Shown here: piece after piece, positions 15,789 through 21,331 of the stretch
How the letters are laid out: each line of letters starts with the position of its first letter
Position numbering within the stretch: position 1 is the first letter of the stretch
Source of the DNA: Coprobacillaceae bacterium
GTDB lineage: Bacteria; Bacillota_I; Bacilli_A; Erysipelotrichales; Coprobacillaceae
DNA length: 32,000 nt
Assembly: GCA_963675915.1 (NCBI GenBank)
Contig: OY780959.1
Span: forward strand, 120,001-152,000
Direction of reading: 5' to 3'
Notes under the pieces: generated by a model
What the model was told of the DNA's origin: nothing
Seen by the model: only the letters and a program-made list of their open reading frames with translations
Database searches by the model: none
Position numbers and translations under genes: made by a program

Positions 15789-15817
15789 AAAAGAGCCTTG
15801 CTGTGCAAGGTTCTTTT
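15789..15817 (+). terminator. intrinsic terminator of the esterase gene; it immediately abuts the intron 5' end
   Basis: AAAAGAGCCTTGC-tgt-GCAAGGTTCTTTT: a 10-13 bp stem with one G.T pair. The T run ends at 15817. Confidence 0.85.
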
Positions 15818-16461
15818 GTGCGACAGGCAGTCGCTTAGATGTCGTGTATACAGGTACATGGCATTTTCCTTTTATAAATGAGTTCCTGTAATAGTTAGCT
15901 ATCAATACAGTAAATATCATGGAATAGGGAAACCCCGTAGGTACAAATCCTACCCCGTGCGCACTGGTGCTATTCGGGAAATCTAGTCTAGGGCATAATC
16001 GTGAGATTGTGTTTGAAGGAGACGCAGTAGTCGAGAGACCTGTAGATGAGTTGGCAGGCCGAAACGAAAAGTGAATCACATGTTGCGGCAGTGGAGAATG
16101 TGACGACGTTGCGAAAGGTGCGGAAGTCTATTCACGACATATTCTAAGAACCAGTCGAATATGCCGGCACTCCATTGTGAAGGTGATTGGCATGTCAACA
16201 AGGGCGTAGTTGATGACCCTGTGAGACCTCTTCATCCACCGAAAGGATAGCCATCTATAAGAGTCATTCGAAGTGATGGTTATATGAAGAGGAGTCAGAC
16301 AATCTCATAGTAGTGAAGTAGTCATGCGACCAAACGTTTGGCGAAGCAAAGGGGATTGACCTTTTACAATTCTTACTTTGTTTAATCGTAATGGTAAGAA
16401 TGACGGTACTTAGGTACAAACGAATTCAAAGAACGATAAATAGAAAGAGAGGTTTGAAATT

Positions 16462-17886
16462 ATGAATGAACCGTTGAAATTGAAGTGGCATTCTCTGTAT
16501 GGACAAATACTCCAGGACAGGAAAATACTAGAAGCATGGAAGCAGGTAAAAGCAAATCATGGAAGTGGAGGGATTGATGGGGTAACCATTGAACGCTTCA
16601 TGGAAAATGAACAAGACAATTTGGACAAGCTACTGGAAGAACTGAGATTAAAGGAATATAGACCAATCCCTGTAAGGCGAGTATATATCCCTAAGAAAAA
16701 CGGAAAGAGAAGACCATTGGGAATACCAATAGTCAAAGATCGGATAGTTCAGCAGGTGCTAACCAATATCCTAACCCCAAAATATGAGGCCGGTATATTC
16801 CATCACTGGTCAGTTGGCTACCGCCCGAATCGTGGTGTCGACAGTGCCATGCAGATTATCATCAAGAACATCGAGGAAGGAAGAAACTGGATATACGATT
16901 GTGATATCAAAGGGTTCTTCGATAACATTCCCCATAAAAAGTTGATGAAGGTATTGAATAAATGCATCGCTGATGGGACTGTTCTTGATTTGATTTGGTC
17001 ATGGCTCAAAGCGGGATACATGGAAGACGGTAAACATATGCAAAGCAAAAGTGGAACACCGCAAGGTGGCGTTATTTCACCTCTACTTGCAAACATCTAC
17101 CTGAACGAACTGGATTGGAAGTTGCACGAGGCAAAGATTCACTTCGTGCGTTATGCCGATGATTTTCTCTTGTTTGCGAAAACAGAAGAAGAAATTGAGC
17201 GGGCAGGAAAGATAGCCAGAGAAGTGATTCAATCATTAGGATTGGAAATGGCTATGGACAAAACCAAAGTGGTGGACTTTAAAAATGATGATTTTACATT
17301 TCTTGGATTTGACTTCAAACACTGGAGGAAAAACAAGAAAGGTGAAGACTACTATTTCATAGTTCCCACCGCCAAGTCGCTCAAAGACTTCAAAAAGAAA
17401 ATCAAGGATAAGACGCAAAGAAAGTGGACATTTTCTCAGGATAAATGGGTAAGCATGCTTAACCCGATTATAGTCGGAAAAGTCAATTATTACCTGAATG
17501 TCTACAAAGCACTGGAAATATTCAAGAAGCACAATTACAAAACCCATTGCGACATAAATCTAATGGGAAGGGAACTAAATACAATTGACAAGTATATTCG
17601 CCAAAGGCTGAGAATGTGCATGATGCATAAACATCCGACAATCAGGAAAGCGTTTGGAATGACGGTTAAATGGAATATAGCATTCTTTGCGATGATTGGT
17701 TTGAAACCGGCATACTGGCACTATTTCAATACCATGTATGGATATCCAATTGAAATATATGTTCAAAGACAACAGGGTATCAACAAAGAAGTAACGAAAA
17801 ACAGAGTGGAACAGTGCAGGAAAGCCGGAATCAAGTATTACACGAAAGAAAGAAACAAGAAAATAGCCTACTCTTTTAGCAAGTAG
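16462..17886 (+). CDS. group II intron reverse transcriptase/maturase (no recognisable HNH endonuclease domain)
   Basis: RT blocks are present: RRVYIPKKNGKRRPLGIP, DIKGFFDNIPH, GTPQGGVISPLLANIYL and VRYADDFLLF. A maturase (X) region follows. The C-terminus lacks Cys/His clusters. Confidence 0.92.
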   Translation: MNEPLKLKWHSLYGQILQDRKILEAWKQVKANHGSGGIDGVTIERFMENEQDNLDKLLEELRLKEYRPIPVRRVYIPKKNGKRRPLGIPIVKDRIVQQVLTNILTPKYEAGIFHHWSVGYRPNRGVDSAMQIIIKNIEEGRNWIYDCDIKGFFDNIPHKKLMKVLNKCIADGTVLDLIWSWLKAGYMEDGKHMQSKSGTPQGGVISPLLANIYLNELDWKLHEAKIHFVRYADDFLLFAKTEEEIERAGKIAREVIQSLGLEMAMDKTKVVDFKNDDFTFLGFDFKHWRKNKKGEDYYFIVPTAKSLKDFKKKIKDKTQRKWTFSQDKWVSMLNPIIVGKVNYYLNVYKALEIFKKHNYKTHCDINLMGRELNTIDKYIRQRLRMCMMHKHPTIRKAFGMTVKWNIAFFAMIGLKPAYWHYFNTMYGYPIEIYVQRQQGINKEVTKNRVEQCRKAGIKYYTKERNKKIAYSFSK

Positions 17887-17924
17887 ACTATAATCATTCA
17901 TAAAATCAGATTTAGTAAATTGGT

Positions 17925-17957
17925 AAGCCGTATGCGTTAATAGCGCATGTGCGGTTT
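17925..17957 (+). ncRNA. group II intron domain V
   Basis: AAGCCGTATGCG-ttaatag-CGCATGTGCGGTTT: the AGC triad and the two-part helix with a 3'-strand bulge match the conserved DV pattern. Confidence 0.8.
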
Positions 17958-17970
17958 GATAAGGGGCTAG

Positions 17971-17975
17971 CTTAG
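17971..17975. repeat. target-site duplication CTTAG (left copy)
   Basis: Identical pentamer directly abutting both transposon termini. Confidence 0.75.
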
Positions 17976-17999
17976 TGTAGCTAGTCAATTTATTTGATG
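17976..17999 (+). repeat. terminal inverted repeat, end distal to the transposase promoter side
   Basis: TGTAGCTAGTCAATTTATTTGATG compared with the reverse complement of 21265-21288, TGTAGCTAGCCATTTTATTTGATG: 22 of 24 nt identical. Confidence 0.8.
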
Positions 18000-18004
18000 G
18001 ATGA

Positions 18005-18058
18005 TTCTTCAAATTATATGGGCCTTCTTTTGGTCCTTTTTTGATGTTCTTCAAATTA
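18005..18058 (+). repeat. subterminal direct repeats TTCTTCAAATTA (18005-16 and 18047-58), each preceded by TTTGATG
   Basis: Exact 12-mers 42 bp apart. The same composite motif, TTTGATG-5nt-TTCTTCAAATT, occurs in inverted orientation at 21193-21215 near the other end. Confidence 0.7.
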
Positions 18059-18121
18059 ATTGAATGGGATATTCAGTTTATTTGAAATGATGTTTTAGAG
18101 GAGAAAGAAAATAATCGCCTG

Positions 18122-18430
18122 TTAGACGATTATCCCTGACTCGTTTAATTTGTAGATGGCTTGTGATATGGCTTCGCTGCTGATTGGATCTATCTCGCGC
18201 AATAGAGCTGACTTGTTCCAAAATTTGTCTTTGAAATATGATAGTTCCAGTCCCAGCTTCATCAACGGGATGCAAATCCAGTTTCCTTTGGCTGATTTAC
18301 CTACTATCACTTCGATTTCATTGCCGTCATATCTTAGCTGGAATTCACACTTATCTGGGTTTTGCGAGACTATTACTATCTCGTTGGCCCATGTTTTTTC
18401 ATCATAGTTGCAGAAGTATTCGATTATCAA
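18122..18430 (-). CDS. hypothetical 102-aa protein, last gene of the transposon
   Basis: The TTG start overlaps the ATPase TGA stop (ATTTGA), with AGAGG 7 nt upstream. No motif recognised. Confidence 0.55.
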   Translation of the reverse strand: MIIEYFCNYDEKTWANEIVIVSQNPDKCEFQLRYDGNEIEVIVGKSAKGNWICIPLMKLGLELSYFKDKFWNKSALLREIDPISSEAISQAIYKLNESGIIV

Positions 18431-19230
18431 ATTACTACCTCTTCGATTGTTTCTAGGATTAAATCGGAATCAATTACTTCGATTTTTCTGATTGCTCCGA
18501 TAAACATTGCCCGGTCGCATATCCGATCAATAACCCGACAGGTGCCGTTGGATGCATTGATGATTGCTTCAATGGCATTGTCGTTGAACACTTCTTGAAT
18601 TGTTTTTCCGCCTTGGAGCTTGTCTTTGATATAAGCAAGACTTTCAGTTTTGTTTAACGGCTCCAGTTTGTAATTGATAATCATTCGCTGACGCAGTGGT
18701 TCATGAGCGGTCAATTTAAGGTTCCTGGTTATTGTCGGCAATCCGACCATCAAGACTACCGCATGATCCTTGGAATCCATATCAAAATTGAAGATCATCT
18801 TCAAATCATTAAGAATGGCGTTATTCATGTAATTACATTCATCAAAGATAAACACCGGGGTAATCCTTTTTTCGTAAATCAACTGGTTTATGGCTGATTG
18901 GATCTCCCTGAACAGATCATTCTTTCGATACCGAGGAGTCAAATCCAGCGACTCAGCCAGTTGCATATAGAATTCCTTGACTGTAAGGGTCGACATTGAC
19001 AAATAAATTATCTTGTAAGCTGATTTGGGGAGTGTTTTGATATAGTTCCTGATCATGGTTGTTTTGCCATGTCCAGGTTCACCGACTATTAGTCCGAAAC
19101 CTTTGATTTCAAAAAGGCTGTTAAGGCGTACTTTCAATTCCTGGTATTCACTTGTTTCAATAAATAAATTCTTTGAGTTCTTGATAAACGGATTGAATTC
19201 CAATCCGTATCTGGTCCAATATTTTTCCAT
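18427..19230 (-). CDS. AAA+ ATPase, ExeA/TniB-like transposition helper
   Basis: Walker A GEPGHGKTT and Walker B VFIFDECNY. Overall ExeA-like layout (YGLEFNPF... at the N-terminus; GTCRVIDRICDRA near the C-terminus). ATG 19230 is preferred because GGAGGAG lies 7 nt upstream. It overlaps the transposase stop as TAATG. Confidence 0.85.
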   Translation of the reverse strand: MEKYWTRYGLEFNPFIKNSKNLFIETSEYQELKVRLNSLFEIKGFGLIVGEPGHGKTTMIRNYIKTLPKSAYKIIYLSMSTLTVKEFYMQLAESLDLTPRYRKNDLFREIQSAINQLIYEKRITPVFIFDECNYMNNAILNDLKMIFNFDMDSKDHAVVLMVGLPTITRNLKLTAHEPLRQRMIINYKLEPLNKTESLAYIKDKLQGGKTIQEVFNDNAIEAIINASNGTCRVIDRICDRAMFIGAIRKIEVIDSDLILETIEEVVI

Positions 19231-20477
19231 TAATCTTCTCCTCCGCATAATTTTGGCTGCACTCGTTTTACTTTTGAATTAGCGTTTTTATCAAGTAGGT
19301 GAATCCGTTCCAGTTCGCCGGTATTCTTGTTAACTATATAGACGTTTTCCAAGTCCGGAGTATATCGGAACATATGCCTTTCACCAGAATAGATATAATC
19401 AATCTCGTATTCCCGATTATCTATTTTGATTACCGAATCAGTACTGACAGACCGCTCTACTTCGAACAGGAAAGTATTGTCGATAAAGTCATCATCAAGC
19501 CTTTTGATCAGATTGCTTTCCTGAAAAAAACGTTGATGAGGTGTCAATCCATTCAAAGACGAATGCACCTTGTTGTTGTAATCATTGATGAACTGGCTTA
19601 AATCCTGCTTCAAACCTTCTAGATTGTTTGTGTAATCTTTTATGTTTATTTGGGCGAAGAACTGATCTTTAATCGTCCGAAACACCCGCTCAATTTTTGA
19701 TTTTCCTTCCGGCGAGTACGGTTTGCAGTAGCTGATGGTTGAATTAATCCTTGCTGCAATCATCTTGATCTGGTGATTTCGATAATTGGAGCCGTTGTCA
19801 AACCTGAACATCTCAGGAATTCCGTATTTGGTGACCGCACTTTTCATAGTATCCATCAAATTGACTGTGTTGTCATTCAAATACAAATCAAGATGGACGA
19901 TCATCCTTGAAGCATCATCAATCAGGGCAATCATATAAGTTCGGTTTTTCTTGCCATTAATGGTTATGTAAGGACCGACCGAACTGTCACCAGCCCAGTT
20001 CATATTGATATGGGGCACTTCGTAGCGGCGCATGTCTTTCTTGTTTGATAGACGCAATTCCGACTTTATCTGATTGACACATCGATTAACGGTTGATAGC
20101 GAAACATCAGTTTTCTTGATGATTCCCTTTTCAATCAACTTGCCGTAAATTACAGTTGCCGGCAATCTAGGATAGGTTGTCTTATAATATTTGATTGTTT
20201 CAACGATGTCATCATCCAGTCTTCTTGACTTGCCACAATCACTTCGCTTTTGAGGAATCAATCCATCGAAGCCTTTCTCTTCGTAAGCAGCAATCCACCT
20301 GGAGATGGTACTGCTTGAGACAGTGAAATCACGGTTGTCGAAACTCTTATAGACTTTCTTGGTAGCTTCCGTAATCGCCTGATTCTTAGACCATGCAGCA
20401 TCGTAATTTCCGGTAATGATGTCATGAATGATCCGATGGCGCATCAACGCTACGTATTCTTGTTCTTTTTTATCCAT
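19230..20477 (-). CDS. DDE (rve-type) transposase with N-terminal HTH and Mu-transposase-like C-terminal domain
   Basis: D..D..E candidates are WAGDSS, RFDNGSNYRN and SPEGKSKIERVFRT. The C-terminus VIKIDNREYEIDY...FRYTPDLENVYIV resembles the Mu/TnsB/TniA C-terminal beta-barrel. GGAGG lies 7 nt upstream. Confidence 0.88.
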   Translation of the reverse strand: MDKKEQEYVALMRHRIIHDIITGNYDAAWSKNQAITEATKKVYKSFDNRDFTVSSSTISRWIAAYEEKGFDGLIPQKRSDCGKSRRLDDDIVETIKYYKTTYPRLPATVIYGKLIEKGIIKKTDVSLSTVNRCVNQIKSELRLSNKKDMRRYEVPHINMNWAGDSSVGPYITINGKKNRTYMIALIDDASRMIVHLDLYLNDNTVNLMDTMKSAVTKYGIPEMFRFDNGSNYRNHQIKMIAARINSTISYCKPYSPEGKSKIERVFRTIKDQFFAQINIKDYTNNLEGLKQDLSQFINDYNNKVHSSLNGLTPHQRFFQESNLIKRLDDDFIDNTFLFEVERSVSTDSVIKIDNREYEIDYIYSGERHMFRYTPDLENVYIVNKNTGELERIHLLDKNANSKVKRVQPKLCGGED

Positions 20478-20525
20478 ATAATACCTCCGTCACCCACTAT
20501 ATACTAATAGAATCGATTATTTAAC

Positions 20526-21194
20526 TCATCCTATGTGGTTGATGGTATACAGGATATTTATGGTATTTCTACATTGCATGAACTGCATCAAATAATTTGA
20601 AAAACAACTTTCAACAAGTTGGTTAATATCATTTGATTCAATTCTCAACGACATCAAACGTTGCTGCCAAACATTGATATACCTGCTCACAACATTATAA
20701 ATTTCACACTCAGACATATAGGGATTTCGATCAAGAATGGCTTTTAATAGTTTCTGATTATTTTTATGTATGGAAATCTCAACTTGAACAGCCAACGGGA
20801 TACTTGAATATGGAACCAAACATGAAAGAAGAATTGCGTGGGTTCTGCCACAATCCTTACATCTTAGCCGCATTATTCTCAAATTAAAAAAGCCAAAAGG
20901 CAGTTTCACCCTTCGGTTATAATAACCATGAATTATGAAATTGCCCTGGCAGTCACCAGCGCAACTCAAGGAAAAACGATTGATATTGGAAACCAATTCA
21001 TTATAATAGGCCTGGAGTTTGGCCCGCGAATCAATCTTCATCAATTTATTATTGATTTTTACTCCGTGATACGTTATCATATTCTTGTCTATATGGCAAA
21101 TGAGAGAAACTGCTTGGTGGTGGCGTCTCTCATTTTTTCTTTCTCTAGATTTATTACCAATAAAATAACAAAGCAAAAGGTCAATCTCAAGCAA
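20526..21194 (-). CDS. zinc-ribbon protein (CX3C...CX2C), possibly DUF6431-like; first gene of the transposon
   Basis: CAGDCQGNFIIHGYYNRRV...LRCKDCGRTHAILLSCLVPYSSIP. The start is uncertain: the TTG at 21194 lies inside an end repeat and has no RBS, and ATG 21080 is an alternative. The family name is from memory only. Confidence 0.5.
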   Translation of the reverse strand: MLEIDLLLCYFIGNKSRERKNERRHHQAVSLICHIDKNMITYHGVKINNKLMKIDSRAKLQAYYNELVSNINRFSLSCAGDCQGNFIIHGYYNRRVKLPFGFFNLRIMRLRCKDCGRTHAILLSCLVPYSSIPLAVQVEISIHKNNQKLLKAILDRNPYMSECEIYNVVSRYINVWQQRLMSLRIESNDINQLVESCFSNYLMQFMQCRNTINILYTINHIG

Positions 21195-21264
21195 TTTGAA
21201 GAAAAATTCATCAAATTATTTGGAATTGACCTTTATTTATTATGACTAGATTATGGTTAGATGG

Positions 21265-21288
21265 CATCAAATAAAATGGCTAGCTACA
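21265..21288 (-). repeat. terminal inverted repeat, end proximal to the transposon genes
   Basis: See 17976-17999. Confidence 0.8.
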
Positions 21289-21293
21289 CTTAG
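21289..21293. repeat. target-site duplication CTTAG (right copy)
   Basis: Identical pentamer directly abutting the ACA terminus. Confidence 0.75.
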
Positions 21294-21331
21294 AAATAAG
21301 TTAGCCTACTTTATTCCTTTGAGTCGTAATA

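Follow-up and report, generated by a model that had tools for sequence, protein, structure and literature searches.

Structure and gene content of the element

Positions 17,976 to 21,288 of the DNA analysed here (the window, a 32,000-nucleotide stretch covering positions 120,001 to 152,000 of contig OY780959.1 in the Coprobacillaceae bacterium assembly GCA_963675915.1) form a complete transposable element of 3313 bp, bounded by 24-bp TGT...ACA inverted repeats and inserted into a group II intron (Table 1). The interval had been singled out from its sequence alone as a compact transposon encoding a DDE transposase and an AAA+ ATPase (hereafter the original prediction). The terminal repeats TGTAGCTAGTCAATTTATTTGATG and TGTAGCTAGCCATTTTATTTGATG match nowhere else in the window and not once in 100 shuffles. 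The left junction reads GGGGCTAGCTTAG followed by TGTAGCTAGTCAATTTATTTGATG at 17976, and the right junction CATCAAATAAAATGGCTAGCTACA followed by CTTAGAAATAAG at 21288. The sixth base beyond the flanking CTTAG is not duplicated (G versus the element's own A).

Four intact, co-oriented open reading frames (ORFs) lie on the minus strand within these limits, in the order DUF6431, transposase, ATPase and DUF6618, the start of the DUF6431 gene having been set by alignment with 37 homologues. The transposase and ATPase genes overlap by their stop and start codons (TAATG at 19228-19232), confirming the translational coupling that had been proposed, and the stop codon of the ATPase gene likewise overlaps the TTG start of the DUF6618 gene (TTGA at 18427-18430). 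The description of the element as a cargo-free, autonomous unit of insertion sequence (IS) size was borne out, with four genes and no additional cargo within the 3.3 kb, as was the presence of two small proteins of unknown function on either side of the core pair of transposase and ATPase. Searches with Pfam and NCBIfam models and comparisons with reference sequences gave no matches to TnsA, TniQ, a resolvase or IstB among the four proteins, in agreement with the predicted lack of the first three functions; the element also holds no further ORF of resolvase size. The label 'heteromeric', in contrast, had to be abandoned, as the term normally denotes TnsA plus TnsB, a combination which the element does not have.

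Both ends contain several copies of a ~12-bp motif, TCAAATWAWWTG, with four in the first 110 bp on the DUF6618 side and two to three in the last 100 bp at the other end. The 32-kb window has seven perfect matches, all of them inside the element; when one mismatch is allowed, the number rises to 16, compared to 5.7 expected. These are presumed, by analogy, to be the binding sites of the transposase; multi-site ends are a usual feature of Mu, Tn7, Tn552 and IS21. The same motif occurs as a palindrome, TCAAATAATTTGA, within the 3' part of the DUF6431 gene, approximately 110 bp upstream of the transposase start. A function of this palindrome as an operator is a guess, and its occurrence may be due to chance. 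A promoter-like site and a terminator-like hairpin, both consensus matches, would fit transcription of the genes as one operon. No near-identical DNA was found in the plasmid and phage collections searched, and exact-protein look-up of the transposase, the ATPase, the DUF6431 variant P0121 and the reverse transcriptase (RT) of the intron returned no matching record.

Table 1. Features of the element and of the interrupted intron (window coordinates)
Feature	Position	Strand	Basis
Host intron, domain V and 5' half of domain VI	17923-17975	+	RF00029
Target-site duplication, left copy CTTAG	17971-17975	.	same 5-mer abuts both ends
Terminal inverted repeat TGTAGCTAGTCAATTTATTTGATG, DUF6618-side end	17976-17999	+	window search and shuffles
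Sub-terminal array of four ~12-bp TCAAATWAWWTG sites (17986, 18009, 18051, 18074), mixed orientation	17976-18086		motif scan
Terminator-like hairpin directly 3' of the DUF6618 stop codon	18108-18136	-	consensus scan
DUF6618 protein, 102 aa, TTG start	18122-18430	-	PF20323, E 3e-7
AAA+ ATPase, 267 aa, MuB/p271 type	18427-19230	-	AAA_22 4e-20; TIGR03015 1e-32
DDE transposase, 415 aa	19230-20477	-	rve 1e-12; HTH_32 4e-10
DUF6431 protein, 184 aa, start MITYHG	20526-21080	-	PF20020, E 5e-8
Internal perfect 13-bp palindrome TCAAATAATTTGA	20588-20600	.	same motif as end repeats
Pair of promoter-like sites 5' of the DUF6431 gene	21162-21267	-	consensus scan; no more than in shuffles
DUF6431-side end: terminal repeat and inner motif copies at 21211 and ~21190	21187-21288	.
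Terminal inverted repeat TGTAGCTAGCCATTTTATTTGATG, DUF6431-side end	21265-21288	-	window search and shuffles
Target-site duplication, right copy CTTAG	21289-21293	.	same 5-mer abuts both ends
Host intron, 3' half of domain VI, to inferred 3' splice site	21294-21314	+	element removal; RF00029 consensus

Distribution and mobility of the family

A word-indexed search of protein clusters yielded more than 2200 relatives of the transposase at E <1e-5, nearly all of which are ~414 aa long. In bacterial collections holding one genome per species, 337 transposase loci were found, mostly in Lachnospiraceae and other Clostridia. Many of these loci lie on contigs of 3.0-3.5 kb, as would be expected from collapsed repeats, and some contigs start with TGT, end with ACA and are exactly one element long. 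The closest copy (91% DNA identity) occupies an unrelated site in a Coprobacillaceae metagenome-assembled genome, which also carries a 76% relative. An assembly of Clostridium butyricum contains at least seven identical three-gene copies of 3042 bp with TAT...ATA ends, each with different flanks. The family is thus multi-copy and mobile, and has moved recently in related genomes. A repeated DUF6431-DDE-AAA cassette, left unnamed, has also been described in a preprint on Clostridium sp. JS66, where it is present in 15 copies.

The gene content is largely constant over the approximately 90 loci compared, with 87 hits for DUF6431 and 83 for the 267-aa ATPase. DUF6431 is encoded upstream of the transposase in nearly all of them, and every one of the ~83 loci with downstream sequence carries an ATPase of the MuB/p271 type that is translationally coupled to the transposase. 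DUF6618 was detected in 19 of about 80-90 family loci, roughly one quarter, always directly after the ATPase gene. All DUF6618 homologues that were looked up, from a family with 112 representatives at 50% identity, likewise followed immediately on the ATPase gene of an element of this kind. Relatives at a greater distance (25-37% identity), with an unchanged gene order, reside on Geobacillus, Sporosarcina, Burkholderia and Rhodococcus plasmids. DUF6431 could be recognised in the Geobacillus, Burkholderia and Rhodococcus copies; the small ORFs located 3' of the ATPase gene in the Sporosarcina and Burkholderia relatives do not align with DUF6618.

Three further observations concern individual copies. 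In C. butyricum GCA_013149575.1, inverted copies at ~0.42 and 1.07 Mb (L087 and L088) are flanked by reciprocally swapped 6-mers, ATTGAC and CGTTAT, which points to a chromosomal inversion of ~650 kb through recombination between the two copies. On a metagenome contig of 12.7 kb, a 95%-identical copy (L101, 2005-5256), truncated at its DUF6431-side end, has an IS66-family element on either side, the two being inverted. Finally, a sub-branch (L106 1-3506; L073 3577-3774; L107) is 3506 bp long and has an additional, fifth ORF (65 aa) immediately 3' of DUF6618.

Relationship of the transposase and ATPase to characterised systems

The transposase consists of an N-terminal helix-turn-helix (HTH) region, an RNase-H core, a putative C-terminal beta-barrel and a conserved tail; the Pfam models that it matches are rve, rve_3 and a number of HTH models. 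Its catalytic residues D164, D227 and E263 have a DD35E-like D-to-E spacing of 36 residues. Against phrog_310, which control scores identify as the MuA family (MuA 664 bits, TniA of Tn402 165), the transposase scored 178 bits over residues 5-386. Reference sequences for the profile comparisons were taken from Mu, pMW2 and R751. The family profile of the transposase matched p480 of Tn552 (pMW2) with an E-value of 4.6e-27 over residues 43-405, the p480 gene on pMW2 (L103 5772-7214), which is frameshifted into two frames, having been fused by hand for the comparison; the MuA and TniA sequences were not significant against the same profile. The best relative of solved structure was ShCAST TnsB (1.5e-10, residues 152-384), with an alignment that runs on through the beta-barrel part (residues 321-384), and the second best was IstA of IS5376 (1e-8).

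The rve-type DDE transposase of the original prediction was confirmed. As to its Mu-like C-terminal domain, the Pfam model Mu-transpos_C (PF09299) gave no match in the window transposase even at E 10, and was found only in homologues of approximately 52% identity; it scored 26.6 bits in P0021 (52% identical; cutoff 21.7) and 20.6 in the C. butyricum member. Among the other domain models named in the original prediction, rve, AAA_22 and DUF6431 matched. The last ~25 residues of the transposase are strongly conserved and may constitute a peptide contacting the ATPase, by analogy with TnsB and MuA, whose tails contact their partner ATPases.

The ATPase carries a Walker A motif (GEPGHGKTT) and a Walker B motif (DE130-131), and matches AAA_22 and TIGR03015 (Table 1), with the TniB model remaining below cutoff at 19 bits. 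It scored 90 bits against phrog_296, the MuB family, for which the control scores were 395 for MuB, 153 for Tn552 p271 and 40 for TniB. The family profile of the ATPase matched p271 from pMW2 at 6.4e-15, MuB at 1e-12, VchTnsC at 6e-3 and, along the complete AAA+ module, the MuB structure 8xvb at 2e-10. Neither TniB nor the IstB sequences were significant against this profile (IstB E 0.02-0.2), and PF01695 (IstB_IS21) had no match in the proteins of the element. Judged by these sequence relationships, the core pair of transposase and ATPase belongs to the Mu/Tn552/Tn5053 lineage, and the predicted placement in the Mu/Tn7/Tn552/Tn5053 superfamily is upheld by the MuA and MuB PHROGs, by p480 and p271 of Tn552 and by the MuB and TnsB structures.

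The closest characterised transposition module is that of Tn552, the beta-lactamase transposon of Staphylococcus aureus, with which the element shares the gene order of transposase followed by ATPase. The duplication reported for Tn552 is 6-7 bp, near the 6 bp of the present family (see below). In contrast to the element, Tn552 possesses the serine resolvase BinL, a res site and cargo, is larger (6.5 kb compared to 3.0-3.5 kb) and has a longer transposase (480 aa compared to 415 aa). The gene upstream of the transposase encodes a recombinase in the pMW2 copy of Tn552 and DUF6431 in the element, and some family members have the extra DUF6618 gene, unlike Tn552.

The likeness to Mu lies in the two PHROG matches and in the 8xvb structure. 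MuA itself failed to reach significance against the family profile and is considerably longer (663 aa). Mu is moreover a phage, which the element is not, lacking homologues of its enhancer and repressor. Multi-site ends and a target choice without sequence specificity are common to Mu and this family, although Mu, Tn7 and Tn5053 make 5-bp duplications. Tn5053/Tn402 (TniA, TniB, TniQ, TniR) belongs to the same superfamily, and its TniA reaches a score on the MuA PHROG comparable to that of the element's transposase, but TniA and TniB were not significant against the family profiles. Tn7 and the type V-K CRISPR-associated transposons (CASTs; TnsB, TnsC, TniQ) are related through ShCAST TnsB, while the element has neither TniQ nor a CRISPR module. 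Type V-K CASTs and Tn5053 share the lack of TnsA with the element. Tn5053/Tn402 and Tn7/CAST use elaborate target selection, of which none was seen in this family.

The two small proteins

DUF6431 combines a zinc-ribbon-like Cys/His motif with a helical C-terminal half. C40, C74 and C77 are invariant, H51 is also invariant in a 66-sequence alignment and C42 is nearly so, and the Cys/His motif is followed by the conserved motifs VPYSQ and FMQIK. The AlphaFold2 model (predicted local distance difference test, pLDDT, 75) displays a three-stranded ribbon followed by four helices. The zinc-ribbon region is similar to the N-terminal part of ISH6 transposases (E 9e-6), and in the relatives from Burkholderia and Rhodococcus the ribbon is succeeded by a weak HTH. 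No significant relative in the PDB was found by fold (Foldseek) or by profile. Sequence and profile comparisons revealed no similarity to TniQ, and TniQ of Tn402 was not significant against the DUF6431 profile.

For DUF6618, the AlphaFold2 model (pLDDT 97) shows a six-stranded antiparallel sheet packed on two helices, with no significant structural match in the PDB or BFVD and no PHROG or PADLOC match. A role of the small proteins in a defence system was considered and dropped, since PADLOC gave no match for them. In three larger proteins, P0257 (1176 aa), P0268 (862 aa) and P0365 (2007 aa), 6-12 repeats match the N-terminal beta-strand region of DUF6618 (residues ~7-54).

Target-site duplication and target choice

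The ends of family members were defined by copy-to-copy homology, as the points where copies cease to be alike, and more insertion sites were obtained from a metagenome scan with the Lachnospiraceae-type end; the corresponding metagenome scan with the end of the window's own subfamily found nothing. The duplication was 6 bp at each of the 22 other insertions with matching flanks, three of which match over 7-8 bases, consistent with 6 bp plus chance. The TGT/ACA termini of the original prediction were confirmed; its 5-bp duplication holds for this copy and not for the family. Since all the other sites give 6 bp, the window copy is atypical, and its 5 bp could stem either from a 5-bp stagger in that event or from the later loss of one base. 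The restored target is identical in both cases.

No consensus emerged from the 22 sites, with at most 0.4 bit per position. A weak C-T-W-W start of the 6-bp duplication was noted (position 1 is C in 11 of the sites and position 2 is T in 13, followed by A/T), into which the CTTAG of the window fits, the sample being too small to call a preference. The mean folding z-score at the 22 sites was -0.16, compared to approximately -3 at the window site. The suggested preference for hairpins, GCTAG palindromes or domain VI of group II introns therefore failed on these sites, and the insertion in the intron is incidental, as the other sites show neither a consensus nor a hairpin bias.

A further peculiarity of the window copy is that its left flank, GGCTAGCTTAG (17965-17975), matches the opposite terminus, GGCTAGCTACA (21278-21288), over eight contiguous bases when the two are aligned at the joint. 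Such a match has a background chance of ~0.0014 per comparison. It was not seen at 24 other insertions, where the likeness of the flanks to the element ends was at background (2.9 of 11), and it may reflect a one-off insertion next to an end-like sequence. Targeting of hairpins and of pseudo-ends was ruled out as a family trait by the other insertion sites.

Proposed mechanism and alternative explanations

The element is probably an intact, autonomous, IS-like transposon of a widespread family, whose transposition module has its nearer kin in Tn552 and its more remote kin in phage Mu. This is based on the defined ends and duplication, the four coupled genes, the identical copies at distinct sites in other genomes and the homology of the core pair. 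Several results weigh against it. The window copy has a duplication of 5 bp rather than 6 bp, and the flanks mismatch in 21 of 37 metagenome copies having both ends, which is tentatively attributed to assembly chimeras or recombination between copies. The roles proposed for DUF6431 and DUF6618 are guesses; no relative with a known function was detected for either. Moreover, the transposase scores about as well on the IS481 model (171 bits) as on the MuA-family profile. IS481/IS3-type elements, which have no ATPase, are thought to move by copy-paste, as stated for IS481 (PMC6794481). In IS3 the movement passes through a circular copy.

The steps by which such a transposon would move are drawn by analogy with Mu, Tn552 and Tn7. 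The transposase would bind the ~12-bp end sites through its N-terminal HTH domains, pair the ends and cleave at the terminal TGT/ACA. The ATP-bound ATPase would coat or polymerise on target DNA without sequence preference, activating strand transfer, and would hand the target to the transposase, probably via the conserved C-terminal tail of the latter. The stagger of strand transfer would be 6 bp, and 5 bp for the window copy. Nick-and-join chemistry and cointegrates would be expected because there is no TnsA-type nuclease and no resolvase; events between replicons would yield cointegrates, which host recombination, or repair of the nick-join intermediate, would then resolve. The cointegrates of type V-K CASTs are likewise resolved by the host.

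DUF6431, encoded first in the operon, would most likely act as a DNA-binding assembly cofactor or regulator. It is conserved with the transposition module from Bacillota to Proteobacteria and Actinobacteria, and an essential role is favoured because of this universality across phyla. DUF6618 would be an optional accessory protein or modulator coupled to the ATPase. A more far-reaching proposal, in which DUF6431 is an obligatory third subunit of transposition, DUF6618 a new type of ATPase modulator and the family a minimal lineage linking IS481-type elements to Mu/Tn552/Tn7, is tentative and on balance doubtful.

The main alternative is that the element is of IS481/IS3 type and moves by copy-out-paste-in through a double-stranded circle, with the ATPase and the small proteins serving as regulators or passengers. 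Among the NCBIfam IS models, all of which remained below cutoff for the window transposase, IS481 ranked first (171 bits, cutoff 224, covering the whole 284-position model), followed by IS3 (91), an ISNCY model (82) and IS21 (64, cutoff 160), and a distant Geobacillus family member even passes the IS481 cutoff (255 bits). TGT/ACA ends, a 6-bp duplication and DD35E-like spacing are likewise shared with IS481. The IS481 match cannot, however, separate the lineages, since p480 of Tn552 also has IS481 as its best match among the IS families, so that this likeness extends to the Tn552 branch as a whole. An IS481 element consists of one ORF in ~1-1.3 kb and lacks an ATPase, whereas the present element has four ORFs in 3.3 kb, an ATPase coupled to the transposase in all of the ~83 informative loci, ~100 additional C-terminal residues that align to the TnsB/MuA beta-barrel, and the conserved tail. 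IS481 makes 6-bp NCTAGN target repeats next to its TGT ends, and no CTAG consensus is present at the 22 sites of this family. An IS481-type mode of movement thus appears unlikely. The relation is nonetheless close enough to qualify the statement that the element belongs with Mu and Tn7 'rather than IS21 or IS3': the exclusion of IS21 stands (64 bits against a cutoff of 160, no IstB domain), while that of IS3-like elements was too strong, as IS481 is about as close as the MuA-family profile.

DUF6431, alone or together with DUF6618, could also be imagined as a TniQ/TnsD-like selector for hairpins, GCTAG palindromes or end-like sequences. The insertion into the apical stem of the domain VI hairpin (z ~-3), the eight contiguous bases shared by GGCTAGCTTAG and GGCTAGCTACA and the relation of the zinc ribbon to the ISH6 N-terminus would fit such a function. 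It is made improbable by the other insertions, at which the sequence (≤0.4 bit per position), the folding (mean z -0.16) and the end-likeness of the flanks (2.9 of 11) are all unremarkable, and by the lack of TniQ similarity or of a Foldseek match in the PDB for DUF6431.

That the element is an IS21 family member, or the remnant of a larger Tn7-, Tn5053- or Tn552-type transposon stripped of cargo, selector and resolvase, is scarcely credible: IS21 is likewise IS-sized, its DDE transposase gene overlaps that of an AAA+ helper downstream, its ends carry several repeats, and IstA was the second-best solved relative, but the IS21 model and the IstB comparisons failed as described, the IS21 ATPase is of the IstB/DnaC rather than the MuB/p271 class and IS21 has no DUF6431, while the ends and duplication delimiting 3.3 kb, the recurrent one-element contigs and the same limits in many copies indicate a whole element.

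Naming and significance of the family

The names that family members bear in PGAP-style annotation are generic ('DDE-type integrase/transposase/recombinase', 'AAA family ATPase', 'DUF6431 domain-containing protein'), and no published name for the family was found in a literature search, to which ISfinder and TnCentral were external. DUF6431 is mentioned in that literature in a gene table or as part of the JS66 cassette, with the element unnamed in both. A full-text search found no mention of DUF6618, and nothing relevant was found that joins IS481 with ExeA, AAA or TniB. The family is very common in gut Firmicutes and apparently unnamed; there is a real, if smaller, chance that it is already catalogued in ISfinder or TnCentral, and if ISfinder lists it the finding reduces to a well-annotated example.

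Transposons with dedicated AAA+ ATPases, such as Mu, Tn7/CAST and IS21, serve as the principal models for the control of target choice and target immunity, and underlie programmable insertion tools. A MuA/MuB-like pair contained in 3.0-3.5 kb, with neither selector nor nuclease nor resolvase, could represent a minimal system for ATPase-assisted transposition, and the functions of two Pfam DUFs, DUF6431 and DUF6618, are brought within experimental reach. The family is also extremely abundant in gut Clostridia, whose genomes it reshapes, as illustrated by the ~650-kb inversion in C. butyricum and by Clostridium sp. JS66, which has 15 cassette copies and a deletion (preprint).

The interrupted group II intron

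The predicted insertion within a structured intron domain VI was substantiated. RF00029 matches 17923-17998 (35.9 bits, E 8e-5), with domain V aligned and domain VI running into the element; this match surfaced with an E-value threshold, and there was none at the Rfam gathering threshold. A canonical domain V is located at 17925-17958, and an intact RT/maturase ORF (RVT_1 4e-42, GIIM) lies upstream at 16462-17886. Removal of the element and one CTTAG restores GGGGCTAGCTTAGAAATAAGTTAGCCTACTTTAT, a domain VI (minimum free energy -20.9 kcal/mol, z ~-3) whose 10-bp helix carries a GAAA loop and has its bulged A at a distance of seven bases from the inferred 3' end. The restoration of this helix indicates that the element split the apical part of domain VI, and an insertion of 3.3 kb at this position probably disables splicing. 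The intron relatives found on plasmids were too distant to supply an empty site. The intron lies within the window intervals 15800-17975 and 21294-21314, where its 5' part is represented only by a weak match to domains D1-D4 at 15995-16074.

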